Below, piece after piece: positions 3,938-55,427 of a DNA stretch of 64,000 nucleotides (positions are counted from its first letter, which is position 1; each line of letters opens with the position of its first letter). Under the pieces are notes generated by a model. It was given only the letters and a program-made list of their open reading frames with translations, had not been told where the DNA came from and did no database searches. Location: positions 1,009 to 65,008 of IMG/VR virus record IMGVR_UViG_2857898870_000003. One strand, given 5' to 3'. A program made the position numbers and the translations under genes. Source of the stretch: a virus.

Positions 3938-6900
3938 ATGGAAGGGAACAATACCAGAAAATTATATGACGCTTTAAAAAGCGATGGATATACCGATTTG
4001 GGCGATTTTTCCTCTTTTGAGGGAAAATTGAAAGACTCGGGTAAGCGTGAAATGCTTTATGAGGTCTTGAAAAAAGATGGATGGCAAGATTTAGGTGATT
4101 TCTCCCAATTCGAAAGCAAATTAGGCTATGCTCCAATTAATAACGAGAATATTAAAGAAACAGATTATGATTCCCAATCAAGTGTTAATCCTGCACCTAT
4201 CGCTTTAAGACAGGAGGTTGACGTGCCTATGAAGGATCAATCGGAATACGTTAATCCGTGGACGAACTCACCTGATTACAATTTTGAGTCCTTGCGTAAA
4301 AAAGGAAAGATTGAGACCGCTACTCCTCCACCTCCTACGGAGTATGAGAAGGATTCTTCTTTTATGAATACTTGGGCTGGAGACGCCATACAGAAACTTA
4401 ACGCAGGAGGTGCCGATCTTGGTGCCGGTATCTTTGGGGTCTTGGATAAGGAGTCCAAAGGACTGGAATCCGCAACTGGAGGATTGATCTCACGTGGCGG
4501 GGCATTCAAGGATATCTCAGATAGATTTAAGGCTGATGCGGAGTTTTCCCGGGCAAGGTCAAACAGATACAATGGCAAGGATTTCACCGATCTTTGGAAA
4601 GAAGGGAATTATATGGGTGCCATAGGTGATATAGCCTTGCAAGGCGTAGAGTCGCTTCCGATGTCAATCGGGGCCATGGCCGCTACAATGGCCGGAGCTC
4701 CAGCTGCCGGACTCGCTGGTATAGGGTCAATAGTGGCTAGCCAGAAATATGATGATCTCGATCAGAATAACCCAAACATGGAAGAGTTCGCAAAGGTATC
4801 TAACGCTATTCTTACTGGTACGGCAGAATCCTTGTCTGAGATGCTGGGCGCAGGCGTATCCAAGGCTTGGATGTCAACCTTATTCAAGACGTTAGGAAAG
4901 GAAAAGGCGCAAGAGGCTATCAAGCGTGGCATAATGGGTAAGATGCAAGAGTACTATAAAAAATTCGGCATGTTTTTCGAGCCTGTAAATGAAGGTATCG
5001 AAGAAGTATCTTCCACGCTAGCGGAGAATATAACGGATAAGATAACTGATGCGGATCCGGAAAGGGATTTGACCGATGGTGTATTGCAGAGCTTTGTCTA
5101 TGGTATGGGAGGCGGCGCTTATTTTACTGGTACCGGAGCGTTGGCTAAAGGTGCGCAATACGTAGCGGATAAAATAGGAGGCAAACAGGCTCAGCAGCCT
5201 ATCACCGATCCCAATGTAACAGATCAAGGCGTTGAAACTCCTCCTCTGTCTAGGTTTGCCGAGGCAGAGGAGGAAGGTCGAAATATGACTGATCCGGGCG
5301 ATATACGGACGGCGAGCAAAAAGATGGAAGAGACAAGGCTTTCCCTATCTGGAATGGTTCCGGGTTTGGCTAGTACGATAGAAAGCTATGTGGATGATGG
5401 AGCTAGCGAGGCCCAAGTGATGAGTCTTCTTGATGGAGTTAATGCGGATGCCCGTCCGTTAGCCGAGGATTTCTACGCTGATTATCTCAGGATATCCGGT
5501 TTGCAGGATCGTATAGGCGATGAAATAGACAATGAGGTTGAAACTTACGTTGCCAATAATATTACTCCTTATGTTACCACGAATCCTGAAGGCCAGTCTA
5601 TTGTTACCATGGCTACGCTTAGCGAAGGAAATGAGAAAATACCTGTGTACGTTAGGAGTATCGAGGGAGATAAAGCCGTTATTTCCGATAACGGACAGGA
5701 TCGGATGGTTTCAGCGAAAAGGTTGAGCGATATAGTCGAGCAAGATGCTGGTCGTATGAGACGGACCTATGAGGATCAATTATTGGCTACCCGCCAGTCC
5801 GAACTTGATATGGCCATGAATCATAATCCCAAGACGCAATTACCCAAGCCGGGATTGGTCATATGGAACGGGGATAATGCGTTTATCCTTCAAGGACAAG
5901 ATGAGAACGGTGATTGGATCGCTCAACCTGCGGCTTTGGACAAGGAGACAGGACAGGTAGCGCCGAAGGCGGGATCAGCTCCGGCTATGCCTATTGCGGA
6001 GAGGGATATTCTTGCTCTTCAAGATGCCATGTACGATGCTCAACAAGCTAATGAGGTATCGCAAGATATTGATAATGTTACCAGTGTTGATTCCGATATA
6101 ACTTCTGTATCCCCTGTGGCCGCTACAATCACCCAGCCAACGAGTGAGATTGAGACGGAAGGTGCCATTGATCAGATAGCACAACCTAGCAATGTAGAGA
6201 ATCCTTCCATGGTCATGCGAGAAGATGGTACACCCGATTTCGTATCATCAGGAACGGATATGGCCTTGGATTTCCTCCATGATAAATACGGAGAGAAGAT
6301 GCCAAGGAAGATCGAGGTGACGAGAAAGTCTTTCGATGAAAGCCTTAAAAAAGCGTCTGATGCCTTGGAAAAGGCGCAAGAGGCATACGATGATGCCCCT
6401 ATCGGAAAAGAGGATAAGGCCGAGGCCGCATTGATAAAAGCCCGACAAGAATATGAGGCGATCAAGGTCGAGGCTGATTTCTGGGCTAATCTTGATGATG
6501 ATATCAAGGAGGCCAGCAAGAAGCCGGGTGATGTCATAGCGAAGGAGATCTCCGTGATAGGTGATCCTATGAGCGGAGAGGAGCTTGCGGCCATGATGCT
6601 GGCTAATGGGGCGATCAAATTGACACGTGACAGTTACAAGAAAGAGACCGGTGCCGGGAATAATGAGACAGCGAGGATGTTCGGACTGTTCGCCTCTCCG
6701 GAGAAAGGCGGTGTTAATATAGAGAGGGCGGGTGAGATATTGGAGCTTGCCGATAGGGAGAATGGCACTAACTTCTTCGATGAGAACGATACGAACGCCG
6801 GAAGGGACGCTATCATAGAGGTCTTGTCTTCCGCTCATACACGTGGAGACTTGATTGATTATGTCAAGAGGAATCGTGAGGCGATCGCTGAGCGTGAGAG

Positions 6901-9900
6901 ACAGGCCGAGTACAACGCTTACGCTGAGTGGTGCGAGGAGAATTATCATATGTCCCCGGAAGAATACGAGGCGTATGAGGAAAGCATGGTACGTGATTTC
7001 TCGGAGAAACAATTGACTGATGAGGAGCGAGGCGAGCTTGATTCGCAAATCGTGGATGAAATACAGGCCATAATTGACGAACAAAATGAAATAGACGCTA
7101 TCTTAGCGCAAAATAAACCGATAGAAAATGAAAACATTGAAGGAAATGACGAAAGCGGAGGCGATGGCTTACGCGAGGGAGGCGGCGAGGTACTGCCAAG
7201 AGAACAACTTGATCAGACCGGGGGAACTGGAGAGGTTGAGGGAAGAGAATCGGCTGGCCCCGACATTGATCGCACGGATGGAGCTACACAAGAAGGCTCA
7301 TCAAGGGGGCTAGTTCCTTTTGTCGCTCCTTCTCCAAAGGAGAATGAGACCCCATTGGACTATGCCGAGCGCATAGTTCAGGCTAAGAGATTGCACGATG
7401 AGGAGCTAAAGGTTGACACAAACCCTTCCGAGGCGCAGAAAGAGGCCGGGAATTACAAGAAAGGGCACATAAAGATAAACGGTTTCGATGTTTCCATAGA
7501 ACAGCCCGTTGGTTCCGTCCGTTCAGGTAAGGACGCTAGCGGAAAGGAGTGGTCGCAGGTCATGAATAACACTTACGGTTACATTCGAGGCACTGAAAGT
7601 GTGGATGGTGATCATATAGACGTATTCCTAGGTCCGGATATGAATAGTGACATGGTGTATGTCGTGGATCAGGTGAATACTGATGGCTCATTCGATGAGC
7701 ATAAGGTTATGATGGGATTCTCTTCCTTGGAAGACGCAAGGTCCGCTTACTTGTCAAACTATGGGGAAGGTTGGCAAGGGTTAGGCAACATTACCGGGGT
7801 AGCGTTGGATGAGTTCAAGAAATGGATTGATTCTTCAATCCGGAAGACCAAACCGTTCTCTGAATATAAAGGAATTAAACGGGAGGAAGATATTGCCCCC
7901 CGAAAAGTAAAGAAATTGTCTTTGGTTGATAAAGACGATTATATAACCTCCGCAGAGCGGAAGCATATAAAAGCGTTTCTGGAGAGTGGATTGAAAGAGG
8001 CAAGGGTAAACAACTCTATCTATGAGATTTCTAATATTGGTGATGATGGTGTTTATGAGATCGTAAGGCGGTTTAACTATACCGATCCATTGACCTTGGT
8101 GAAAGATGAGAACGGTAAACTAGTTAATAAGCGAGGGGAGGGTGAACATGTTATAAGGGTAAAGCCCACTTTTGAGGAGATAAGGCCGGATAGTGGTATT
8201 CGTTTCCGAGAAGTAAAAGATAAGAATGGCGAAAAGTCCTTGGTTGGGTTACATAATATCAGTGAAGAAAAACTTCGAAAAGCATTGAGACAAGGAGGCT
8301 TCGCCAATCCGAGTGCGGCCGTTATAGACATATCCAGACAATCGCATACTGGCTATGGTTCCATATCGCTTGTACTTCCCTCTTCCATGATTGAGAAACG
8401 TACTGGAAAAAATGCTGGTACTTGGAGTCAAGACGCATGGACACCCATTTATCCAACTATAGAGAGGCAGTTTTCAGGGAAAGGCAGTGACGCATTTTCA
8501 AAAGACTTGCAAAAACTTCCAGAGGAAATGCGGTCGACAACCAAAAGTGGGATGAACAGCTATATGGATGGAAGAGGCGAGGATAGTCTTGCTTATATGT
8601 ATTTATATGAGCAAGGTAAAGCTCCGGAAATAGCCCGTACAAAGCCTTCATATCCGGAGAAAACAAGAACCGAAGTTGAAGATGCCACAAATGGATCGTT
8701 CTCTATGAGTGGTTTGTCTGACAAGCAATTGTCCCGTCTGAAAGATGCCTATATGGAATATAAAGGATTTAGTACGGAAGGTTACAATGAGGCGATAAAA
8801 CTTCGTAGAGCCAAGCTTGAAGAAGCTATAGGGAAAATGAATCCAAGATCAATCCTCTACGAGAAACGTAAGATGGATCTTGAACGAATCGATAAGTATG
8901 GGTTTGATTACTCTGCGGTAGAAAGCTTCATGAAATCAGTACGTGATGACATAAGCAATTCCGACAAGGTTGATGCTCACGGAACAATGCGCGATTCATG
9001 GAATTTCATAGAAGAAAATGGAATGCGAGGCGATTTTAACAAGTGGCTCGATAAATTGAATGAAAGGTACGGGATAAAAGAAATTATTTTTAACGGATTT
9101 ACTCCTTCCGGTATAAGAAAGTACATTCCTAACACCTTGGAGAACGTATCCAAGTTTATGAAGAAGCAAGGAAGAAGCGCATCTGTCGGAATAGGTGCGT
9201 CGTTCCAAAATTTCGCTGCGAGTTTGCTGGATGCTAAAGGCTCACTGAAAGATATACGCAAGGATAAAGGGAAGCTGACTACGGATCATGCTGACGTTGA
9301 CGCTTTCAGGGATAAATGGTCTAAGGTATTTCATGAGTTAGGAGAAAAATTGCAACCGGATGCCAAAGGATATGACGACTACGGTCTATACAGGTTGGCG
9401 GAAGCGGCACGAAGCAAAGACCCTCAAAAATATATAAAGGAAGAATATGGGATAGATTTTTCTGATGAGGATGTGAAGACGCTGAATGAGATGGTGGATG
9501 CCATAAGGAATGAATATCCGGCAATGTACTTCGAGACTAAGTTTGAACGTCCTGTATATTTGGAGGAATTTGCTGCCGCTGTAGTCCCGGATAACGTAGA
9601 TGGTGACATTCGTAAGGCGATATACGATGCGGGTTTGAAAATATTCACTTATAAAGCCGATGATGAGATATCGAGAAATGAGGCAGTTAAGCAAGCCTCA
9701 GAAATTGATGGCGTTCGTTTTCGTTCTATAGGTGATAAAGGTGCTGCTAATTTAAATAAGGCTGAAACTATTGAATCCTCAATCAACGATTGGTCAAACA
9801 AGCTTAATACCCCTGTCAGGGTAATCCATGACGTGGACGATATAACCGATACGGATGAGAATATGTTGGCCCGTAAGAGAGATTCCAAAGGCTGGTATGA

Positions 9901-12900
9901 TACTTCTACCGGGGAGATAGTCATAGTATCACCTAATTCCACGTCCGTAGGTGACGCTCAAAGGACTTTCCTCCATGAGGTGGTAGGGCATCATGGGTTA
10001 CGTGAGCTATTCGGGGATGATTTCGATACTTTCCTTGATAACGTGTATCGGAACGCCAACGAGGATATCCGGAAAAATATCATAGACCGGACTAAAGGCA
10101 ATCCTCTTAACTTGCGTGAGGCTACAGAGGAATACATCGCTGAATTAGCGGAACGTGGTTTCGATAACAAGGCCGAGCGTTCGTTATGGGAAAAGATCAA
10201 GGACGCTTTTCTTGATATGTTGAGAAAGGCCGGTATTAGCCTTGATTTCAAGTTATCGGATAATGACCTCCGTTATATTCTCTGGAGAAGCTATAAGAAC
10301 TTGGAGCAAGGAAACTTGATGGATGTGGCTGAGGATATCGTGATGAGAAATAGATTAGGTCTTAACAATATAAATTTGAACGAAAATGGATCAATCGAAA
10401 GAGATATTGAGCCTAAAAAAGGAAAACAACCTTCTGAAACAAAAGGTACTGGAAGGGAACTCGAGACAATCGAGGGCGTTAATGAGAACGGAAACGAAAG
10501 TGAACGAGACCATATCGACAAACCAAGGGGAGTTGAAAACGCTATTGACGGAACTGAAAACGCAACTGACCGAAATGGAAAAAAGGCTGATGGCCAAGTT
10601 GACAACGATGGAGACCAACTTGACGGAGGAGATACGGTCGATAGGAACGGAAGTGTCCGGGATGAAATCGACGGTGAGCGGACTGTCATCGGACGTGCAG
10701 GATCTGAAAACAAGGGTAGAGGCGTTGGAGAAAGCGTAAGGGAAAAGACGGATGATTTCGCTTTCGCAGAGAGAATAAAGAAAGAAAATGATAACATCCG
10801 TTTCCGGGAGGCTAAATCGGAGGTGGAGAACGAGGAGCCTTTGAATAAGGAAATGGTTGACGCTTGGGATAAAGTGGCATCTTCAGACAGTTTTAAGTTC
10901 AAAGAGGCTATGGTTGACTCTTTAACAGCTATAGATGAGTTCTTGAAATTATTGGCCAAGAAAACCAAATCGAAGATACTGGATTACGAGAACCCATATT
11001 ACGCTCTTATAGCCTTGTCTTCAAAGAATAAGGCGGATATGGATAGTTTCGACTCTAAATTCCTGAATCCTTTGAATGAGGCTATAAGGGCATTGATAGG
11101 TGATGTCTCTGAGGTGTCCAAGAAAGGTTTAAGAAGAACTTGGGATTGGTCTAAAGGGTCATTAAGGGATTTGGTTAAATATGTACAATCTAAACACGGT
11201 ATCGAGAGAAACCGTGATATGTCCGTAAGGGATGGCATAGAAACTCTTAAGGCGTTTGACGTGGACGCTTTGTCTAAAATGGGGGTTATTTCCGACTCTG
11301 ATCTTAAAAACGCTAAAAAAACAGCGGAAAAGGTTGCGGAGGAAAAGGGGAGTGAGGCTTACAAAAAGACGTATGACAAGGTTTTTGGCAAGGAACTAAA
11401 GAAAGGTGTTGATAAAGGTAAGGCTGAGCGTTCTGCTGAGATAGCCGCCGATTATCGGAAATCATTTGTCAAATCCGAGATCTATAACAAGGAGATGGAT
11501 AAATATAAAGAAAAGGTGACCGGAACGTTGATTGATAGGTGGGAAGATTCAAAGAAAGATGTCCTTAATAAGGATCTAGCGTGGGACGAGGAACAAAAGG
11601 AGTTGGATAGAGAGGCATTGTCATTCCAATGGAAGTTAGGCGATAATTCTTATGGTGTGATTCTAGGAAAGGACTATAGTGGTTTGTCTTCAGTGTTTAA
11701 GCCTTCGGAGGATGGAGCGAATAAAGATAAATGGCTTTCTGACGCTTATGATTTCGTGAGAGATTATGAGTCTACCCACAATATGGTTTTAGTCGATAAT
11801 CTATGGGATAAGGTTCATAACGTGTCAGAGTATACGTTAAGGAGGCAGTATGAGTCCGGGCTGATAAGCAAGTCCTATATGGATAAGAACCTTTCCCGGT
11901 TTAAGTACTTTATCCCGTTGAGAGGTTTCTCCGATAATATTGCCTCCGATGTTTATGATTACATAGACGCTACGGAGATAAAGATGGGAAACCCAGTGAA
12001 GACCGCTAAAGGACGTATCTCTGAGGCTGATAATCCTTTCGCTGGTTTGATACACGTTGGATACGGATCTATTACCGCAGGAAATAGGAACTTGGCGAAA
12101 CAACGTTTTCTCAATTTAGCTAGCAATCATGACACTGGCGGTCTTATTACCATAGATAATATCTGGGTTCGAAATGTCGGTACCGAGGAAAATCCGGAAT
12201 GGGTGGAGTCCATTCCGCAAATACCGGATAACGCTTCTGGCGAGGAAGTGGCCAAGGCGGTGAAAGATCATGAGGAAATGATGAGAGAGCTTAGAGAGGA
12301 AGGTAAGGCTGAGCTGATTAAAGGAGGTCGATCGGATATACCATATAAAACATTGTATGACCAGAGAAGCCAGCATCAGGTACAGGTTTTCGTGGGAGGT
12401 AACAGGTATGTCATGACCGTTAATGGCAATCCCCGATTGGCGCAAGCGGTAAATGGATTGACTAATCCGGATGTGAAGGATGATCTCGCTTACGTCGTAG
12501 CTAGGAACTTGAAAACATTTATGGCCGGAGCTTTTACGTCCAAGAACGTGGCGTTCTCGTTTGCCAACTTGATAAGAGATACGCCTTATGCCAATAACTC
12601 CGTGTTTGTGACGGAGAATTTTAGGTATTTCAAGGATTTTTCAGGGAACCAGAGGCGAGCGTTATTTGGACTTCGGAGTTTAGGTCGTAATCTGTATAAA
12701 TACAGAAGGGGAGAGATAGATATTTCTGATAAGGAACAGGCGATATTTAAGGAGTTCATGGATAATGGAGGGGCTACTGGATATACGTTCGTGGAGACGC
12801 AAAAGGAATACGCCAAGGATTTAGCGAACAAGTTAGAGAAACTTTCGGATGGTAATATTGGGAAGTTATCCCCAAAACAACTAGTCTCTACTGTATTTGA

Positions 12901-14263
12901 GTGCTTTGAGTTCATGGGTAACGTAGCGGAACTTGTGAACCGATATGCGGCGTATAAGACGAGCCGGGAACATGGAAGATCCATTGACCGGTCAATCAAT
13001 GATGCCAAGGAGGTATCGGTTAACTTTAACAAGAAAGGTGCCGGAAAGAAAACGAAGAGCGATAAATGGTATATTAACACAGCAGCGTGGATATCTGAGT
13101 ATGGAAGAGATTGGGTGTTGTTCTTTAACGCCGCCGTTCAAAGCATGTATAAGGAATATTCCATGCTGAGAAATCATCCAATTAAAGGAATAAGTTCCCG
13201 TATAGCCCCACTAATATTCATGGGATCGTCTGTCTCGTTGCTCAATAATCTGTTTATGCCTATGCTCTTCGCTTATTTGGGATGGGATAGCGATGATGAT
13301 GATAGGGATTATTTTGATTCATTGAGCGATCATGAGAGACAGAATAATATATGTATTCGTTTGACTCATGGTCGTTGGCTCAAGATTCCGTTATCTCCGG
13401 AGCTTGCCAATTATTTCAAGATCGGAGATATAATTGCCGGGCAATTATCCGGTAAAAGGGAAGTGGAGGCTATGGATGTCGTTAAGACAGGGATTGATAT
13501 GGTGTCCCCGTTAAACATAAACTGGGAGTATGATAGTTGGAAGTTCGCTCTAAATCTCCTGCCTACGGTGGTTCAGCCTATCGCCCAAAACGCCTCTAAC
13601 GTGAATTTTATGGGTAATCCTATCTATAAGACCTCGATGAACAAGGCTAATGATTATGATCCGGAGTACACCAAGGTCTACAGGAGTACCAGTACCACCA
13701 TGGTCGAGTTGTCGAGGGCGTTTAACTCGTTAACGGGTGGCGACGATGTCAAGAGAGGCACGAGCTTTAATCCGGCTACTTGGCAGAACATTCTTTCTGG
13801 ATATACAGGAGGTTTTGGTACTGTGGCATTGGGCGTGTCTGATTTAGTCCTTGATATGCTGTCCGGAGAGGATGGGGATATGCCGGTGAGTCGTTATCCC
13901 CTGTTAAGCCGTTTCTTGACCGGAGGGGACAAGGATTTGAAGCTGAGCCGGATGAATTCCATATATAACAAGAAGGTCGTAGACTTTGTCACGGGAATGG
14001 ATCATGATTACAAGGGATATCTAAAGAAAATACAGGATACTTCCGTGGACGATTTCGACAGGGCCGGATATATGGTCAAGTTAAACCAGCTGACCGGTAG
14101 CGATGATTATAGGAGATCCATGGAATTGTCACAGTACGTGAAGGCCATATCCGATATGGAGAGGTTCCTTCGTGAGGTCGGTAGCGATAATGATTCCCTA
14201 GAGAATCAAGTGTATGAGCTAAAGCTACGGGCGTTGGAGATATTTGAGGATGAGGATGAGTGA
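3938..14263 (+). CDS. Giant 3441-aa multidomain protein (candidate packaged/ejected polyvalent-type protein); function unknown
   Basis: Uninterrupted 10,326-nt ORF starting 5 nt after the previous gene. Contains an N-terminal tandem ~28-aa repeat (KLYDALKSDGYTDLGDFSSFEGKL / MLYEVLKKDGWQDLGDFSQFESKL), a HEVVGHH (HExxxH, non-canonical) motif near aa 2000, long acidic/Gly-rich disordered linkers, and many globular segments. Size is comparable to phage polyvalent or virion-injected giant proteins (established concept), but no domain could be assigned with confidence. Confidence 0.65.
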   Translation: MEGNNTRKLYDALKSDGYTDLGDFSSFEGKLKDSGKREMLYEVLKKDGWQDLGDFSQFESKLGYAPINNENIKETDYDSQSSVNPAPIALRQEVDVPMKDQSEYVNPWTNSPDYNFESLRKKGKIETATPPPPTEYEKDSSFMNTWAGDAIQKLNAGGADLGAGIFGVLDKESKGLESATGGLISRGGAFKDISDRFKADAEFSRARSNRYNGKDFTDLWKEGNYMGAIGDIALQGVESLPMSIGAMAATMAGAPAAGLAGIGSIVASQKYDDLDQNNPNMEEFAKVSNAILTGTAESLSEMLGAGVSKAWMSTLFKTLGKEKAQEAIKRGIMGKMQEYYKKFGMFFEPVNEGIEEVSSTLAENITDKITDADPERDLTDGVLQSFVYGMGGGAYFTGTGALAKGAQYVADKIGGKQAQQPITDPNVTDQGVETPPLSRFAEAEEEGRNMTDPGDIRTASKKMEETRLSLSGMVPGLASTIESYVDDGASEAQVMSLLDGVNADARPLAEDFYADYLRISGLQDRIGDEIDNEVETYVANNITPYVTTNPEGQSIVTMATLSEGNEKIPVYVRSIEGDKAVISDNGQDRMVSAKRLSDIVEQDAGRMRRTYEDQLLATRQSELDMAMNHNPKTQLPKPGLVIWNGDNAFILQGQDENGDWIAQPAALDKETGQVAPKAGSAPAMPIAERDILALQDAMYDAQQANEVSQDIDNVTSVDSDITSVSPVAATITQPTSEIETEGAIDQIAQPSNVENPSMVMREDGTPDFVSSGTDMALDFLHDKYGEKMPRKIEVTRKSFDESLKKASDALEKAQEAYDDAPIGKEDKAEAALIKARQEYEAIKVEADFWANLDDDIKEASKKPGDVIAKEISVIGDPMSGEELAAMMLANGAIKLTRDSYKKETGAGNNETARMFGLFASPEKGGVNIERAGEILELADRENGTNFFDENDTNAGRDAIIEVLSSAHTRGDLIDYVKRNREAIAERERQAEYNAYAEWCEENYHMSPEEYEAYEESMVRDFSEKQLTDEERGELDSQIVDEIQAIIDEQNEIDAILAQNKPIENENIEGNDESGGDGLREGGGEVLPREQLDQTGGTGEVEGRESAGPDIDRTDGATQEGSSRGLVPFVAPSPKENETPLDYAERIVQAKRLHDEELKVDTNPSEAQKEAGNYKKGHIKINGFDVSIEQPVGSVRSGKDASGKEWSQVMNNTYGYIRGTESVDGDHIDVFLGPDMNSDMVYVVDQVNTDGSFDEHKVMMGFSSLEDARSAYLSNYGEGWQGLGNITGVALDEFKKWIDSSIRKTKPFSEYKGIKREEDIAPRKVKKLSLVDKDDYITSAERKHIKAFLESGLKEARVNNSIYEISNIGDDGVYEIVRRFNYTDPLTLVKDENGKLVNKRGEGEHVIRVKPTFEEIRPDSGIRFREVKDKNGEKSLVGLHNISEEKLRKALRQGGFANPSAAVIDISRQSHTGYGSISLVLPSSMIEKRTGKNAGTWSQDAWTPIYPTIERQFSGKGSDAFSKDLQKLPEEMRSTTKSGMNSYMDGRGEDSLAYMYLYEQGKAPEIARTKPSYPEKTRTEVEDATNGSFSMSGLSDKQLSRLKDAYMEYKGFSTEGYNEAIKLRRAKLEEAIGKMNPRSILYEKRKMDLERIDKYGFDYSAVESFMKSVRDDISNSDKVDAHGTMRDSWNFIEENGMRGDFNKWLDKLNERYGIKEIIFNGFTPSGIRKYIPNTLENVSKFMKKQGRSASVGIGASFQNFAASLLDAKGSLKDIRKDKGKLTTDHADVDAFRDKWSKVFHELGEKLQPDAKGYDDYGLYRLAEAARSKDPQKYIKEEYGIDFSDEDVKTLNEMVDAIRNEYPAMYFETKFERPVYLEEFAAAVVPDNVDGDIRKAIYDAGLKIFTYKADDEISRNEAVKQASEIDGVRFRSIGDKGAANLNKAETIESSINDWSNKLNTPVRVIHDVDDITDTDENMLARKRDSKGWYDTSTGEIVIVSPNSTSVGDAQRTFLHEVVGHHGLRELFGDDFDTFLDNVYRNANEDIRKNIIDRTKGNPLNLREATEEYIAELAERGFDNKAERSLWEKIKDAFLDMLRKAGISLDFKLSDNDLRYILWRSYKNLEQGNLMDVAEDIVMRNRLGLNNINLNENGSIERDIEPKKGKQPSETKGTGRELETIEGVNENGNESERDHIDKPRGVENAIDGTENATDRNGKKADGQVDNDGDQLDGGDTVDRNGSVRDEIDGERTVIGRAGSENKGRGVGESVREKTDDFAFAERIKKENDNIRFREAKSEVENEEPLNKEMVDAWDKVASSDSFKFKEAMVDSLTAIDEFLKLLAKKTKSKILDYENPYYALIALSSKNKADMDSFDSKFLNPLNEAIRALIGDVSEVSKKGLRRTWDWSKGSLRDLVKYVQSKHGIERNRDMSVRDGIETLKAFDVDALSKMGVISDSDLKNAKKTAEKVAEEKGSEAYKKTYDKVFGKELKKGVDKGKAERSAEIAADYRKSFVKSEIYNKEMDKYKEKVTGTLIDRWEDSKKDVLNKDLAWDEEQKELDREALSFQWKLGDNSYGVILGKDYSGLSSVFKPSEDGANKDKWLSDAYDFVRDYESTHNMVLVDNLWDKVHNVSEYTLRRQYESGLISKSYMDKNLSRFKYFIPLRGFSDNIASDVYDYIDATEIKMGNPVKTAKGRISEADNPFAGLIHVGYGSITAGNRNLAKQRFLNLASNHDTGGLITIDNIWVRNVGTEENPEWVESIPQIPDNASGEEVAKAVKDHEEMMRELREEGKAELIKGGRSDIPYKTLYDQRSQHQVQVFVGGNRYVMTVNGNPRLAQAVNGLTNPDVKDDLAYVVARNLKTFMAGAFTSKNVAFSFANLIRDTPYANNSVFVTENFRYFKDFSGNQRRALFGLRSLGRNLYKYRRGEIDISDKEQAIFKEFMDNGGATGYTFVETQKEYAKDLANKLEKLSDGNIGKLSPKQLVSTVFECFEFMGNVAELVNRYAAYKTSREHGRSIDRSINDAKEVSVNFNKKGAGKKTKSDKWYINTAAWISEYGRDWVLFFNAAVQSMYKEYSMLRNHPIKGISSRIAPLIFMGSSVSLLNNLFMPMLFAYLGWDSDDDDRDYFDSLSDHERQNNICIRLTHGRWLKIPLSPELANYFKIGDIIAGQLSGKREVEAMDVVKTGIDMVSPLNINWEYDSWKFALNLLPTVVQPIAQNASNVNFMGNPIYKTSMNKANDYDPEYTKVYRSTSTTMVELSRAFNSLTGGDDVKRGTSFNPATWQNILSGYTGGFGTVALGVSDLVLDMLSGEDGDMPVSRYPLLSRFLTGGDKDLKLSRMNSIYNKKVVDFVTGMDHDYKGYLKKIQDTSVDDFDRAGYMVKLNQLTGSDDYRRSMELSQYVKAISDMERFLREVGSDNDSLENQVYELKLRALEIFEDEDE

Positions 14264-14525: not shown

Positions 14526-15131
14526 TTAAAGTCTTAAATCTTCTTTCTCCGGTAATAATCCATATTTAAAAAAAATATATATTTGGTCATCAAACAAATC
14601 ATATACCTCTTTATGTATTTTAGCCCCTACAATATATAGCATATTCCGATACGCATATAGATAGTTAACGGATACGTGGATTATCGGGTCTTTGTATCTC
14701 TCGTCCTTGAAATATGAATTATATACATATTTTATAGCGTGCTTCCCGCAAAACATACAGTTCTTGAACTCAGTGATCTCGCAGATCTCTCCGGTCAACT
14801 CGCTAGATCTCTTAGTCGATATTTCCATCATTTCCTTTAAAGCGTCTTTTGCCGGCCAAATATCCTTGTCCTCGATCGGGCTTACGTCTGTAATATTCAC
14901 GAATGCGATAGTCCCGCTATTAACTTCCTCCACCTTGAAAACGGTATGCTCGGCATTGCCTGTCGTGATCTTCCACTTAAATAAGTCCATATCAGGGAAT
15001 TCCCAAGTGAACCTGTACTTGAAATTGGAATATACATAGTTCTTGTTATCCCATCTGTAGTCTTGACATATACAGTATTGGCAGAATAACAATGCTAATA
15101 AAATCACATATGTTAGTCTCTTCATTGTCAT
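14526..15131 (-). CDS. Secreted protein (201 aa) with N-terminal signal peptide; moron
   Basis: MTMKRLTYVILLALLFCQYCICQ signal-peptide-like N-terminus, AT-rich codon usage, several Cys. Co-oriented with 14304-14513. Confidence 0.45.
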   Translation of the reverse strand: MTMKRLTYVILLALLFCQYCICQDYRWDNKNYVYSNFKYRFTWEFPDMDLFKWKITTGNAEHTVFKVEEVNSGTIAFVNITDVSPIEDKDIWPAKDALKEMMEISTKRSSELTGEICEITEFKNCMFCGKHAIKYVYNSYFKDERYKDPIIHVSVNYLYAYRNMLYIVGAKIHKEVYDLFDDQIYIFFKYGLLPEKEDLRL

Positions 15132-15416
15132 TCAAATTTATGAGTACTTTGATCTAGTATAAGCGCTTTTTTAGATATTTTATCTACCAGAATGTATTCC
15201 TTGACACTTGAATACCTTTGTGTCTGCACGTAATTCCATGCTATGAAAGCAAATATGAACATCAAAATCACCTTGAATATTCTGTATGTTTCCTCGCTCA
15301 TGTTTTATGTATTTATATTTTTTGCAAAATTACCCAATCTTCACATCTGTTATCCCGCAGGAGGCATGTTTTACGGCATATTTTATTTTAGTTTTATCCC
15401 GAGGAATAGTAAAAAA

Positions 15417-15458
15417 TTAAAAACTCCCCAAATCCTCACGGACAAGGGAGTTTTTATT
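15417..15458. promoter_or_regulatory. Stem-loop (10-bp perfect stem AAAAACTCCC/GGGAGTTTTT) with conserved loop motif AATCCTCACGGAC, followed by a T-run
   Basis: Read directly from sequence. The same loop motif recurs at 15508, 15582, 15744, 15827, 54531-54557 and 61062-61090. Confidence 0.5.
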
Positions 15459-15929
15459 ATTTAACTATAATCTATATGAATGGTTTTCAGACAACCTTAA
15501 ACGGTCCTATCCTCACGAACGAGAGCGTTTGTAATATCTAAATCCATATCTAAACAAAGACATACTTAATCATCATCGCCGATCCTCCCGGAATAGCAAC
15601 GGTGGGTATATCCGTCTTAAAATGCTTCCCAATACCACCCAAGGGAAGCGGGAAATATTTATTCAAACTATATTTTATGCCATAAGGAAAGGAGTGTGCC
15701 CCCATCCTCCAAAGCTATCCCCTTGACATAAATATACCTCTGGTTCTCACGAATGAACGGTATGACATTGATAAAATTATTTTATGAATACAACCTAGTG
15801 TAATATCTTTAAGTAATGACTCCAGTCCATCACGGATGAGAGCCATAAGGGGTTATAAATATATAACATACCATATACGCATAAAAAAACGTGGTGCCGT
15901 CACAACTACCAAGACCCGGCGTCCCCACG

Positions 15930-16027
15930 CCAACATAACAGGTAGTAAGCAACGGCCCACGTCTTATATATAGATTATATATACAAATAACGTGGGCGTA
16001 TTGTTGCTATCGGCTCCCTGTTATGTT
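15930..16027. repeat. Large imperfect palindrome (about 31-37-bp arms) around an AT-rich palindromic core
   Basis: Left arm aacataacaggtagtaagcaacggcccacgt (15932-15962). Right arm acgtgggcgtattgttgctatcggctccctgttatgtt (15990-16027). The arm ends aacataacagg / cctgttatgtt and gcccacgt / acgtgggc are exact reverse complements. Spacer cttatatatagattatatatacaaata. Confidence 0.5.
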
Positions 16028-16210
16028 TATAAATTTGGGGAATTTAGGTCTTTATAGGAGACGATATCTTTAACGCCACAATGTGTGTCACGTCTTACAT
16101 TCTAATCAGTGACTACGCGAATATACTCTATTTATTTTATATTAGTAAAAAATAAGTCGTATTTTATTTGTCTAATATTGATTTTTACAGGGAAAACGTT
16201 CATGCGCACG

Positions 16211-18325
16211 CTATAAACTCGACTCATTTTTTGGATATGAATCGATATATCCCGTTGATTCTTCTTTGATTATAGAAGGCTTAGGCATATCTTCGGATAT
16301 GAGCGCACCTATCATGTCTGTCATCAATATATCGTCGTGATTGCCACGACCGGGAATATTCCCGTAACTACCGTCCGGACGTTGCTCGTATTTTGACGCT
16401 TCCTTGTACATACGCTCATCCGGGTCTATAAACATATCGTCCTCGAAAGCCACTATGAAATTATCTACCATGTCCTGCTTGGTCTTTTTGTTGGTCTGGA
16501 AGCCTATCTTCTTGTATATGCCGTTCCTTATGTCCTCGGGATCCGTCGCCGCTCGCATGTAAAGATTAGGGTAGATATCCTCTATCTTTTTCAGTATGCC
16601 ACGAATATGATCGCCTTCCTCCACGAACTCTGACGCCTCTGATTTTTTCTTATCAAACGTATTGCTCTCGAAGGCGAGAAGGGCGTTCTTGTAGTATCTG
16701 GCGATCTTGACGGCTTTGTAGGCGAGCCAATCGTATCGTATATGACCGTGCCATCTGGCTACCACCTCCGCCTTTCCTCCGCTGAATCGTAAATTCCACC
16801 TGTTTATAACCGTTATGCATGACGGGTCAGAGTTCTTGCTACGTCCACCGACATCGACGATAACAAGATACTCGTTGGATGTCCTTGTATCATCGGGCCT
16901 CTTCCAGATTCTCAACAGGCCGTTCGGATTCTTGGAAAGAATTATCCTCTTGGTCTTCTCTGATTGGGATATGTCGCCAATGAACTCCGGGGGTGATACG
17001 TATCTTTCCCGCATTACCTCGATCGTATAGATATTGAACACGAGATTACCGGAATACTTGAAACACTCGACATCATCGGATGGTGCCTCGGATGCCATCG
17101 ATGCGTGATCATGGAACGAGGCCCTTTTCTTGATATACCATTTGATGTGCTCCAGCGTAGCTCCTTTTTCCCATAGAGACCATAGATACTGTCCCGGCTC
17201 GCTATTGTCATTAGGGGAGGTCGTGACATCCCTTCCCTCTAATAGATCCAATATGAAAAGCCGGATCTCTTTCTTGTCCTTGAATCTTATCATGTCGTTC
17301 TCGATAAAGAAGAACGGTATGAATAGCGCCTTACGGGATGACGTGCCCTCCTTGGCCATTTGGTACTCATCATAGAAATAACCGGCCATGCCGTTAGCCG
17401 TAGACTCGGAGATCTCCATGGTCAACGGTCTCTCCAATATATTCGAGTCTATGTTTGTTATAACCTGCTCCGCCGATTTGCCATCCGTTGTTTTCCAGTA
17501 GGCTACCTCCGAGAAGTGGGCCATGGCATAGTCCATACCACGTGTTGACTCGAAATTCTCATAAGATGCCACGGTTATCACGTTATCACGTACCTTGTTC
17601 CCGGACGGGTCGGTGATTATGGAGTCGGACGCCGAATGCTCGTAAGGGGCGAATTGTAACTTGTCAACACCATATATAAATCCCGGGATATTATCGAGAA
17701 CCTTTTTATACATGGCCTTGATACGTTTGGCGGTATCTTTCGTCTGGGCTATAATTACGGAATACCATCCTTCCATGACGAATAGCTGTATCCACGCCAT
17801 ATAGAGCTGTACCAAGGTGGAACCTCCCCATTGCCGGGCTTTCAATAATATTATACGGATCGGGACTCCCTTATGCCTCATTTCCTCCAGAACGGATAGC
17901 ACGTAACGTTGGGCGTAATTAAGCTCAAAGGGGATCATTTCTCCCGCCTCTTTCGACTTGATCTTAAATAACGAGAAAAAGGCGAAGGACGGGTCTCTCG
18001 AGCAACGGGCCCAAAATAGCATGTTGGCCACGTCCTCCTCATTTATCCCATCTGAATCCGGGTACAGCTCGTTGAACCTTATCGTGTAGTCCTTTATGGA
18101 ACCGGCTTTCAGGACATCCTGATACAGATCGTTTTTGAAAACCTCCTCGGTAAGCCACTGTACCCTTATGGGGTAATCATCTATGACAACCCTATGGCTA
18201 TGCCCCTCCATTCCACGCCCCGTGAATTGGTCGTGCGTGCCGAATATATTTTTCAGCCTCTTGTTATTCTCGGCCAATATAGACTCAACCTCTTCCGTGA
18301 ACGCTAATTTTCTGTATGACTCCAT
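16211..18325 (-). CDS. terL: Terminase large subunit (704 aa)
   Basis: N-terminal ATPase-like region with a Walker-A-like LLKARQWGGST and a Walker-B-like hydrophobic stretch ending AHFSEVAYW. C-terminal RNaseH-like nuclease signatures (LVIVDVGGRS, HDDILMTDMIGA). Size and position next to morphogenesis genes fit TerL of Bacteroides phages. Confidence 0.6.
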   Translation of the reverse strand: MESYRKLAFTEEVESILAENNKRLKNIFGTHDQFTGRGMEGHSHRVVIDDYPIRVQWLTEEVFKNDLYQDVLKAGSIKDYTIRFNELYPDSDGINEEDVANMLFWARCSRDPSFAFFSLFKIKSKEAGEMIPFELNYAQRYVLSVLEEMRHKGVPIRIILLKARQWGGSTLVQLYMAWIQLFVMEGWYSVIIAQTKDTAKRIKAMYKKVLDNIPGFIYGVDKLQFAPYEHSASDSIITDPSGNKVRDNVITVASYENFESTRGMDYAMAHFSEVAYWKTTDGKSAEQVITNIDSNILERPLTMEISESTANGMAGYFYDEYQMAKEGTSSRKALFIPFFFIENDMIRFKDKKEIRLFILDLLEGRDVTTSPNDNSEPGQYLWSLWEKGATLEHIKWYIKKRASFHDHASMASEAPSDDVECFKYSGNLVFNIYTIEVMRERYVSPPEFIGDISQSEKTKRIILSKNPNGLLRIWKRPDDTRTSNEYLVIVDVGGRSKNSDPSCITVINRWNLRFSGGKAEVVARWHGHIRYDWLAYKAVKIARYYKNALLAFESNTFDKKKSEASEFVEEGDHIRGILKKIEDIYPNLYMRAATDPEDIRNGIYKKIGFQTNKKTKQDMVDNFIVAFEDDMFIDPDERMYKEASKYEQRPDGSYGNIPGRGNHDDILMTDMIGALISEDMPKPSIIKEESTGYIDSYPKNESSL

Positions 18326-38738: not shown

Positions 38739-38864
38739 GACGGGAGATAGACCTCCTCACGGATTCCTTGGATTTCGAGCCTATAAACTTTCATGAGATT
38801 AAGGCTAGGATCAGGTACTTGATGAGCATAGAAGGGAAAAGAAAGTGACATTATACTTTATCCT

Positions 38865-54407: not shown

Positions 54408-54523
54408 TGATGGTAGCGGGACTCGAACCCGCATGAGTTGCTGAAATTCCAAATAGGAAAGGACAAAACTACATTCTCTCGATAGTCACAAACCTTAGCG
54501 TCTACCAATTCCGCCATACCACC
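54408..54523 (-). tRNA. tRNA-Leu-like element with about 30 extra nucleotides between D-arm and T-arm (possible pseudogene or intron-containing tRNA)
   Basis: Minus-strand sense GGTGGTA-TG-GCGGAATTGGTAGACGC...GCGGGTTCGAGTCCCGC-TACCATC-A. The D-arm is identical to the E. coli tRNA-Leu D-arm. Canonical T-arm (G53, TTCGAGT, C61). 7-bp acceptor stem with one G-U. But 65 nt separate the D- and T-arms (about 33 expected) and no clean anticodon arm can be drawn. No encoded CCA. Confidence 0.35.
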
Positions 54524-54530
54524 GTGTTTG

Positions 54531-54557
54531 CCCCGCATATCCTCACGGACGGCGGGG
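54531..54557. promoter_or_regulatory. Hairpin CCCCGC/GCGGGG with conserved loop ATATCCTCACGGACG
   Basis: Read from sequence. Identical 15-nt loop to the hairpin at 61062-61090. Lies immediately 5' (minus-strand sense) of the tRNA-Leu-like element. Confidence 0.45.
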
Positions 54558-54614
54558 ATAATCATTCTAACCCAAATCTAATACCATGAAAAACACACTC
54601 TAATATTAATATCC

Positions 54615-55427
54615 TTAGTTCTGAATCTTTATTAAATCGGGTATCGCTCCATAAATGGGGGTACGACCATCCCATTTGTCGATAAACTGCTTATAAAGAA
54701 TTTCTTTAGTCAATCCTCTCGAGGTGATTAACGCTTGTTCCGTTTTCAATTGCTCCAACTCGTTGCGTTTCCGTTGCTCCGCTATCTGCTGGTCTAAAAC
54801 CGAAATATTGGTGTTAACTTCATTCCTACTATCAATTTTCTCGCGAACCGCCTTAGAAAACTCTAATTGCGCCGAGAATGTGAGTAATTGAAGACCTCTT
54901 TTCTCGAATTCCTTATCTACAATCTGCTCAAGGCGTTTCTCAAAAAGAAGCGAACCTCCGTCTGCCATTAAGCTATCGGTCTTATGTTTACGGCTTTCCT
55001 CCTTGATCAGGTCATAGATGCGAGGTTCTAGTATGTTATCCTCCAATGATTGCATGAAACCGTCTTTGCCTGATTCCGTATCGGCCTTGTCTATGTGCTT
55101 GTTATCGAAAACAACGTCTATTGCCCTGTTTTTGATAACCTTGTAGGAGTAAGTGGGGCGTGCGTTAAACTCCGTATTGTCTGCGGCTTTTAACGTGACA
55201 GGGCTTCCGAACTCGCCTCGTTGGTCGAATAGCGGGACTTGAAATAATTCCGTGCCCCATTCCCAAGTTGAAACCCTGCCTGATACGACCTTGAAATCCT
55301 CCTTCCCTTGTTTCCCATAATTTTCCATCAATACCCCAGCGTAATTAGGTGCTACACGTTCACAAGAGGATAAAAATACCATAGCGATTATCGCTATAGT
55401 AAAAAACTTAAAACTTGTCCTTTTCAT
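54615..55427 (-). CDS. SPFH/band-7 (stomatin/prohibitin-like) domain lipoprotein (270 aa)
   Basis: Signal peptide with lipobox LSSC. Band-7-like core (VVSGRVSTWEWGTELFQVPLFDQR...KNRAIDVVFDN). C-terminal coiled coil (NISVLDQQIAEQRKRNELEQLKTEQALITS). Confidence 0.6.
   Translation of the reverse strand: MKRTSFKFFTIAIIAMVFLSSCERVAPNYAGVLMENYGKQGKEDFKVVSGRVSTWEWGTELFQVPLFDQRGEFGSPVTLKAADNTEFNARPTYSYKVIKNRAIDVVFDNKHIDKADTESGKDGFMQSLEDNILEPRIYDLIKEESRKHKTDSLMADGGSLLFEKRLEQIVDKEFEKRGLQLLTFSAQLEFSKAVREKIDSRNEVNTNISVLDQQIAEQRKRNELEQLKTEQALITSRGLTKEILYKQFIDKWDGRTPIYGAIPDLIKIQN

Follow-up and report, generated by a model that had tools for sequence, protein, structure and literature searches.

A GNRA-capped hairpin module recurs on the minus strand of a temperate Bacteroides phage sequence, beside tRNA-like genes and a FopS-like seed

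The stretch of DNA analysed here, referred to as the window, comprises 64,000 nucleotides (positions 1,009 to 65,008 of the IMG/VR record IMGVR_UViG_2857898870_000003) and, judged by its sequence relationships, is part of a temperate Bacteroides phage or prophage. Among public sequences, only Bacteroides phage BF1-TP2 (PQ571263.1, 68 kb) is closely related to it; this phage has an integrase and a repressor and shares with the window many blocks of 90–98% identity in a mosaic pattern. The hairpins described in the following lie in a non-coding block at 15300–16210, which is located between a small ORF (15297–15130) and the gene for the large terminase (ORF 16211–18325; phrog_5989, phrog_24361), and in two further regions at 54.5 and 61 kb, where tRNA-like genes adjoin. 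The features of these regions are given below, with scores from Rfam families and from R1, a covariance model that was derived from 18 phage hairpins differing in their stems and with which the whole window was searched unfiltered.

15417–15458, minus strand: family hairpin with internal loop UUG/UUUG (terminator scan; R1 match at 15421–15453, 26.5 bits, E 4e-6)
15420–15560, minus strand: BTnc231-like segment (RF04180 positions 1–154, 19.9 bits, E 0.038)
15499–15530, minus strand: degenerate copy 'd', AAACG / UUC-GUGA-GGA / CGUUU (fold; R1 10.4 bits, E 0.9)
15574–15601, minus strand: degenerate copy 'c', CGUUGCU/GGCGAUG with cap UCC-GGGA-GGA (fold -14.1 kcal/mol, z -2.3)
15734–15763, minus strand: degenerate copy 'b', cap UUC-GUGA-GAA on a weak outer stem (core scan, fold)
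15816–15846, minus strand: degenerate copy 'a', outer stem AUGGCUCU/GGAGUCAU with cap UCC-GUGAU-GGA, i.e. a pentaloop (fold z -2.55)
15883–16140, minus strand: stable long hairpin ending in U7 (fold -83.3 kcal/mol, z -5.3)
54408–54523, minus strand: tRNA-Leu-like gene with a large central insertion (Rfam tRNA, 39.8 bits)
54531–54557, minus strand: strong hairpin (fold; R1 match at 54528–54560, 48.9 bits, E 1e-13)
54558–54596, minus strand: FopS-like single-stranded 5' region, the R1' seed (Rfam RF04319)
61062–61090, minus strand: strong hairpin (fold; R1 match at 61060–61092, 45.5 bits)
61151–61211, minus strand: tRNA-Met relic of 61 nt with the anticodon arm missing (comparison with relatives)

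Among known large or structured RNA families, none reaches threshold in the window except one tRNA.

The motif common to these hairpins, TCCTCACGRAC, occurs in the window in four exact copies, all on the plus strand (15433, 15510, 54540 and 61072), where shuffled sequences lead one to expect 0.02; its recurrence is therefore non-random, as had been proposed from the letters of the sequence. The original prediction had read the motif on the plus strand, however, and it is the minus-strand reading, GUCCGUGAGGA, that turns out to be the functional one. The degenerate core U-Y-C-G-N-R-A-G-R-A is found 14 times on the minus and twice on the plus strand of the window, and when the outer stem is required to have 5 bp or more, seven copies on the minus strand stand against none on the plus strand (Markov shuffles: mean 0.67, maximum 3). 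The genes around every reported copy are on the minus strand, which is thus the sense strand of the neighbouring genes as well as the informative strand for the motif. Read in this direction, the motif forms a 3-bp UCC/GGA helix with a GNRA tetraloop, GUGA, on top, nested in an outer stem that varies. From base to tip, the complete module consists of an outer stem of 6–10 bp, a bulged C, a G.U pair, the UCC/GGA helix and the GNRA tetraloop, with a 2-nt AU bulge on the 3' side; the tetraloop is usually GUGA and sometimes GGGA, and the flanking CG and UAU are constant. Two sites with one mismatch (38754 and 53370), neither of which has its own stem, appear to be chance occurrences; at 38754 the motif is one arm of an ordinary terminator.

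With R1, three matches in the window are significant, all on the minus strand, i.e. those at 54.5, 61 and 15.4 kb. At 15510, 15584 and 15828 the model scores 10.4, 7.8 and 8.2 bits (E about 1–7), each non-significant alone, and the copy at 15744 is absent from the match list for the whole window; these four weak copies share just the UYC-GNRA-GRA cap. The seven-site family that had been proposed thus holds for three sites, with the cap alone uniting the other four. The claim that the copies at 54531–54557 and 61062–61090 carry the identical 15-nt loop, ATATCCTCACGGACG, on different stems was correct.

That the family is genuine in related phages became clear when viral contigs were scanned with this 15-nt loop in its minus-strand reading, CGTCCGTGAGGATAT. 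At least 119 DNA stretches were found, representing at least 50 distinct contexts, most of which have pairing stems on either side of the loop; no fewer than 12 different stem sequences occur among them. In an alignment of 18 distinct phage hairpins, on which a structure with an outer stem of 7 bp, the bulged C, G.U plus UCC/GGA, the tetraloop and the AU bulge was imposed, 97% of cells are paired on the GUGA-reading strand (24–53% in controls with slid partners, 83% on the opposite strand), and G.U outnumbers A.C in the stems by 29 to 2; both figures are somewhat inflated because the members had been pre-selected for at least four adjacent pairs with G.U allowed. A count that tolerates both mismatch types equally gives about 22 G.U against 3 A.C (CG...UAU class). 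Two-sided changes occur at all seven outer pairs. Most of the phage hairpins were collected by an exact 15-mer query, and conservation of the loop is therefore partly a product of the collection. Still, a loop that is conserved while the stems around it vary by compensatory change indicates selection as part of a folded element, and the recognition-type element that had been suggested on the basis of conserved loop and variable stem is consistent with this.

The non-coding block at 15.3–16.2 kb is 91–98% conserved in about 50 phage contigs. Many of these match the window only from 15413 on, i.e. the common block ends exactly at the terminator hairpin 15417–15458, which also delimits the mosaic block common to phages. 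This hairpin is a strong intrinsic terminator, for which the predicted 10-bp stem and T-run were confirmed; a U-run is present on the minus strand and on the plus strand as well. At the other end of the block, directly downstream of the large terminase gene, the hairpin 15883–16140 is an inverted repeat with an AT-rich centre, which could be either a structured RNA in its own right or a DNA element with a role in packaging. Downstream of it follow about 470 nt with five capped hairpins, which end in the U-tailed terminator. As a group, the same-strand caps clustered within 350 nt lie far over the background rate. Several differences in BF1-TP2 amount, on the minus strand alone, to a switch from G.U to G-C or U-A: the U.G pair of copy 'd' is U-A there, the G.U pair of copy 'a' is G-C (pair 48/72, GU in 11 sequences and GC in 1), and a CUCU/AGAG variant of copy 'b' pairs better. 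In the alignment of the block, changes are one-sided only, double compensations are absent and a few pairs are broken. A 1-kb non-coding block uniquely conserved between the two phages was considered and dropped, since the many other blocks of 90–98% identity common to the window and BF1-TP2 point to mosaicism.

Two further interpretations of the copies in this block were considered and rejected. An iteron-like spacing of about 70 bp had been proposed, but the actual distances are 77, 73, 161 and 84 bp and hence not regular, and a 10-nt core alone is common to the copies. The copies belong to separate hairpins, one for each, and the block is bordered by the large terminase gene and the small ORF rather than by a replication initiator gene. 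A tandem array of decayed FopS units at 15.4–15.85 kb is conceivable at best: similarity to the seed of the small RNA FopS upstream of the four degenerate copies is marginal (p 0.015–0.4), and the five capped hairpins are therefore not claimed as FopS genes. As a separate observation, two contigs (L380 and L349) lack 39 nt (15684–15722) that correspond nearly exactly to one predicted hairpin, GGGGAUAGCUUUGGAGGAUGGGGGCACACUCCUUUCCUU; this hairpin-sized gap suggests that the block was assembled from hairpin modules.

At 61 kb, the hairpin is located in the trailer of a tRNA-Met relic that was missed by both ARAGORN and Rfam. In L009 and L012, a full 76-nt tRNA-Met(CAT) is found at the place of the relic, and in relatives ARAGORN finds tRNA-Met(CAT) 53–67 nt upstream of the hairpin with the AGGUCUC stem in 15 loci; the anticodon arm has been lost in the window, in BF1-TP2 and in L050. 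The outer stem of the hairpin, AGGUCUC/GAGGCCU, includes a U.G pair, in place of which relatives have U-A (variants GAGGCCT and GAGACCT). About 40 unstructured nucleotides precede it and UUUUCAC follows. In the optimal fold of the plus strand, this hairpin is not formed.

The copy at 54.5 kb has an outer stem CCCCGC/GCGGGG with the complete apical module, i.e. the C bulge, the G.U pair, UCC/GGA, the GUGA tetraloop and the AU bulge, and BF1-TP2 carries the same hairpin. It stands immediately 3' of a region that closely resembles the seed part of FopS: 23 nt (54596–54574) are identical to the FopS consensus with its seed GUGUUUUUCAUGGUAUUAGAUUU, at a distance of about 15 nt from the hairpin, and the local alignment score with the FopS seed, 52, is reached by 0.03% of random windows. 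Against RF04319, positions 54596–54557 align with model positions 1–40 at 30.8 bits (E 0.006 in a 301-nt search), which is below the gathering score of 56 bits, and the 31 3' positions of the model remain unaligned. A scan for the seed found no second copy in the window. The unit starts about 20 nt past the stop codon of ORF 54615–55427, and no TAnnTTTG promoter lies upstream of 54596, so that it would need read-through from the upstream gene. Behind the hairpin there is no U-tract; instead, CAAACAC is followed by the tRNA-Leu-like gene, which begins 7 nt after the hairpin and went undetected in the ARAGORN run. In relatives (L036, L050, L309, L318 and others), the acceptor, D-arm and T-arm of this gene are kept around at least five unrelated inserts, which range from 64 to about 150 nt in length, and from sequence it looks like a tRNA scaffold with variable cargo. 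The minus-strand folds at both 54.5 and 61 kb show about 40 unstructured nucleotides and then a hairpin, which is the usual layout of a small RNA.

The earlier observation that two copies flank tRNA-like elements was accurate—these are the tRNA-Leu-like gene at 54.5 kb and the tRNA-Met relic at 61 kb—and the arrangement at 54.5 kb is common in related phages. Among 44 distinct hairpin contexts examined, 22 have a tRNA-like gene (acceptor plus T-arm) 1–11 nt downstream, an arrangement seen at 12 of 3000 random positions. These 22 genes have at least eight different acceptor sequences. A seed-like sequence is located upstream in 24 of the 44 contexts, and 19 have both the seed and the tRNA-like gene. 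The unit of seed and hairpin recurs in many phage contigs with different stems. In the literature searched, no description of a recurrent fusion of such a hairpin or small RNA to tRNA-like genes was found.

In the host, FopS is a small RNA of about 65–70 nt, in which a single-stranded seed represses susC-type mRNAs and a terminator hairpin follows; its partner RbpB binds the 5' part of small RNAs and not the hairpin (PMC11697453). Together with its relative GibS (PMC7366714), it controls polysaccharide-utilisation loci in gut Bacteroides. When genomes were scanned with the FopS seed, 120 loci were obtained, mostly across Bacteroidales, and a tally of the listed caps showed C-GNGA(N)-G caps in 58 of 119 host FopS terminators examined, for instance GUC-GUGA-GAC, GUC-GUGAU-GAC and GUC-GGGA-GAC; the loops GUGA, GGGA and GUGAU are the same set as in the window. 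The 15-nt module itself, common in phage contigs, did not turn up in the surroundings of 100 chromosomal FopS genes (711 kb in total). Like FopS, the 54.5 kb unit combines a 5' seed, identical over 23 nt, with a single 3' hairpin. Unlike FopS, for which host copies carry the promoter TTTGCAnnGTGT, it has no promoter of its own and no U-tract, its hairpin has the extra C and AU bulges, a tRNA-like gene follows 7 nt on, and its score remains below the Rfam threshold. Many phage-borne units were found in a seed scan of viral contigs, including intermediates (L253, L291 and L313) with a canonical promoter, the seed, GGCUG-UCC-GUGA-GGA-UAGCC and a U-run. The seed is absent at the other two of the three strong copies, i.e. 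at 61 and 15.4 kb. Given the identity of the seeds, it is plausible that the 54.5 kb unit has the same targets as host FopS.

A second host small RNA, BTnc231, offers a comparison for the terminator end of the 15.4 kb block. Its consensus (RF04180) has two C-GUGA-G capped hairpins, the second of which is the terminator. The order at 15560–15420 (fold z -3.65) is similar, with a U/A-rich 5' part, a C-GUGA-G hairpin, a spacer and a C-GUGA-G terminator with a U-run. In contrast to BTnc231, the segment scores 19.9 bits against a gathering score of 80.4, has no recognizable promoter and stands at the end of a structured non-coding block of about 0.8 kb downstream of the terminase gene. We propose that the phage module is an elaboration of the GNGA-capped 3' hairpin of the R1-seed small RNAs of Bacteroidales, i.e. 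of the GibS/FopS/BTnc231 type.

What, then, could be the role of this module? We think it probable, although by no means assured, that it is an RNA 3'-end or punctuation hairpin in minus-strand non-coding transcripts, which would operate in different ways at the three sites. The run of U after the stem is present at 15417–15458, where transcription would be terminated, weak at 61062–61090 (UUUU) and absent at 54531–54557. At this last site, a tRNA-like gene follows a few nucleotides on: RNase P would cut at the 5' end of the tRNA and thereby free a FopS-like small RNA, of which the hairpin would then form the protective 3' terminus. In the trailer of the tRNA-Met relic, the hairpin 61062–61090 may close the tRNA transcript. 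Two simpler accounts have to be weighed against this reading. According to one, the copies are ordinary intrinsic terminators or decayed remnants of such, with a loop owed to descent by duplication and to the stability of the C-GNRA-G cap. The 15417 copy is indeed a good terminator, the terminators of host FopS and BTnc231 are similarly capped and UUUU does follow the 61 kb copy. Yet the 54.5 kb copy and most of its relatives have no U-tract and abut a tRNA-like gene, neutral descent predicts that an unpaired loop diverges faster than its stem, which is the reverse of what is observed, and the other terminators of the window are free of the motif. We therefore regard this account as quite improbable, and the original view that the element is not a generic terminator agrees with the absence of the motif from the window's other terminator-like hairpins in the terminator scan and of a proper U-tract from two of the three strong copies. 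The other account places the function in the DNA, i.e. in iterons or an origin, or in a cruciform or single-stranded hairpin recognized by a protein of replication, packaging or the homing-endonuclease type. The position of the 15.3–16.2 kb block beside the large terminase gene would suit it, as would the long inverted repeat with its AT-rich centre, which makes a packaging signal somewhere in the block possible. All copies, however, are co-oriented with local transcription, G.U pairs far exceed A.C pairs, the opposite strand pairs less well, the plus-strand fold of the 61 kb site is devoid of the hairpin, the copies share 10 nt at irregular spacing and two strong copies reside in the cluster of tRNA and small RNA genes, far from any replication initiator gene. 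This makes a DNA-level element very improbable indeed; between the two possibilities that had been left side by side, RNA processing or binding site and cruciform, the data favour the former and speak against the latter.

A third alternative overlaps with the 3'-end reading and may hold in addition to it. Here, the apical module would be the binding or cleavage site of a dedicated RNA-binding protein or ribonuclease of phage or host, with a role in regulation or processing—such as antitermination, control of decay or loading of the small RNA—rather than in passive protection of an end. The bulged C and the AU are kept across unrelated stems, beyond what stability would account for, which makes a specific ligand likely. 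In particular, the copies at 54.5 and 61 kb agree in 15 nt although their stems are unrelated, the two bulges are retained although the tetraloop itself is free to change from GUGA to GGGA, and the module is absent from the surveyed surroundings of chromosomal FopS genes and common in phage contigs. On the other hand, RbpB does not bind the hairpin of its small RNAs (PMC11697453), and part of the loop conservation stems from the exact 15-mer collection. On balance, we consider a dedicated protein of this kind rather doubtful as the primary explanation. A more far-reaching reading would combine these elements: the 15-nt module might be a punctuation signal of a whole clade of temperate Bacteroidales phages that marks the joints of polycistronic non-coding arrays, in which FopS-type small RNAs that mimic those of the host would be fused to tRNA-like scaffolds, some with hypervariable inserts, with release by RNase P, a factor that reads the bulges and repression of SusC-type glycan transporters via a seed identical to that of the host. 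This must be seen as speculative and on present grounds unlikely; if it were true, a prophage could reprogram nutrient use by its host or remove phage receptors.

Similar principles are known from unrelated systems. In mammals, the 3' end of MALAT1 is formed by RNase P at a downstream tRNA-like structure, mascRNA, and the E. coli small RNA 3'ETS-leuZ is derived from a tRNA spacer. The 54.5 kb unit resembles the former in having a protectively structured RNA end with a tRNA-like element next to it, the 5' processing of which would set the 3' end; the 61 kb copy resembles the latter by its location in a tRNA trailer. These are analogies of mechanism between unrelated sequences, with cleavage being hypothetical in the phage. 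Lambda boxB offers a further parallel: in the nut system, too, short hairpins with a GNRA-type loop occur several times within an early operon, and there a protein recognizes them as RNA, as may be the case for the phage module. Unlike this module, boxB has a 5-bp stem and a pentaloop, and it acts together with a boxA partner and an N-like antiterminator. HDV-like theta ribozymes occur beside tRNA-Met, tRNA-Leu and tRNA-Sup genes of gut phages, at most 5 nt from the tRNA, and have a nested double pseudoknot and a catalytic C (PMC10879173). Like our hairpins, they are small structured RNAs that border on tRNA genes of gut phages and presumably serve in processing. The phage hairpin, however, is a simple stem-loop of 27–33 nt, which either lies on the 5' side of a tRNA-like gene or follows a tRNA on the 3' side at a distance of 53 nt or more, and a search with the HDV-type Rfam families at E values up to 10 gave no match in either of the two regions scanned; a theta ribozyme was rejected for these reasons. 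N4-like hairpin promoters, which came to mind because of a 3441-aa ORF, were likewise dismissed, since BF1-TP2 is temperate and the loops have 15 nt and not 3, and on inspection of the sequence a K-turn or mimics of the sarcin-ricin loop or of SRP helix 8 were discarded, as the G.A pairs or internal-loop sequences needed are absent.

That a FopS sequence occurs in phage is already known from a one-sentence remark on a Caudovirales phage (PMC11697453). What is new are phage units with the exact seed of the host, a phage-specific hairpin as 3' end and a direct join to a tRNA-like gene. If expressed, such units would provide a route for prophages to hijack a host small RNA regulon, and they would represent a bacterial example of 3'-end formation of a small RNA via tRNA processing. 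For annotation, our data carry a warning: the motif should be read as RNA on the transcribed strand, and not as iterons or protein-binding DNA.

A number of minor features of the window deserve to be recorded in their own right. The giant ORF mentioned above, with 3441 codons (3938–14263, plus strand), is in part 93–98% identical to gp68 of BF1-TP2, a protein annotated as hypothetical. The small ORF at 15130–15297 (minus strand, about 56 codons, unlisted) is hydrophobic in its middle part and overlaps with ORF 14526–15131 where the latter starts; ahead of the small ORF, at 15325–15332 on the same strand, there is a Bacteroides -7 box, TAATTTTG. The 17-mer UUGUCCGUGAGGAUUUG at 15428–15444 recurs unchanged in L343 and L348 as the variable arm of a phage tRNA-Leu(CAA); the 15.4 kb cap may be derived from, or be a mimic of, such an arm of a class II tRNA. 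Tandem repeats of 27 bp (59843–60300) lie in the coding frame of ORF 59571–60653 (minus strand), and the ends of the BF1-TP2 record fall in equivalent 27-bp repeats; the record was thus probably opened there by the assembler, and its ends would not be physical termini. Finally, the 61 kb cluster contains three more structures on the minus strand. Four nucleotides (AAAC) ahead of the tRNA-Met relic, the hairpin GCCGGGG-UGGGAUU-CCCCGGC (61216–61236) has a layout of hairpin, AAAC and tRNA that matches the arrangement at 54.5 kb. Farther upstream in the cluster, a hairpin with the cap GCC-GUGA-GGC is found at 61265–61279. At 61334–61402, a third tRNA-like element has the acceptor GGUAGCU/GGCUACC and the T-arm GGGGG-UUCGAGU-CCCCC, with a single long AT-rich hairpin in place of the D and anticodon arms.
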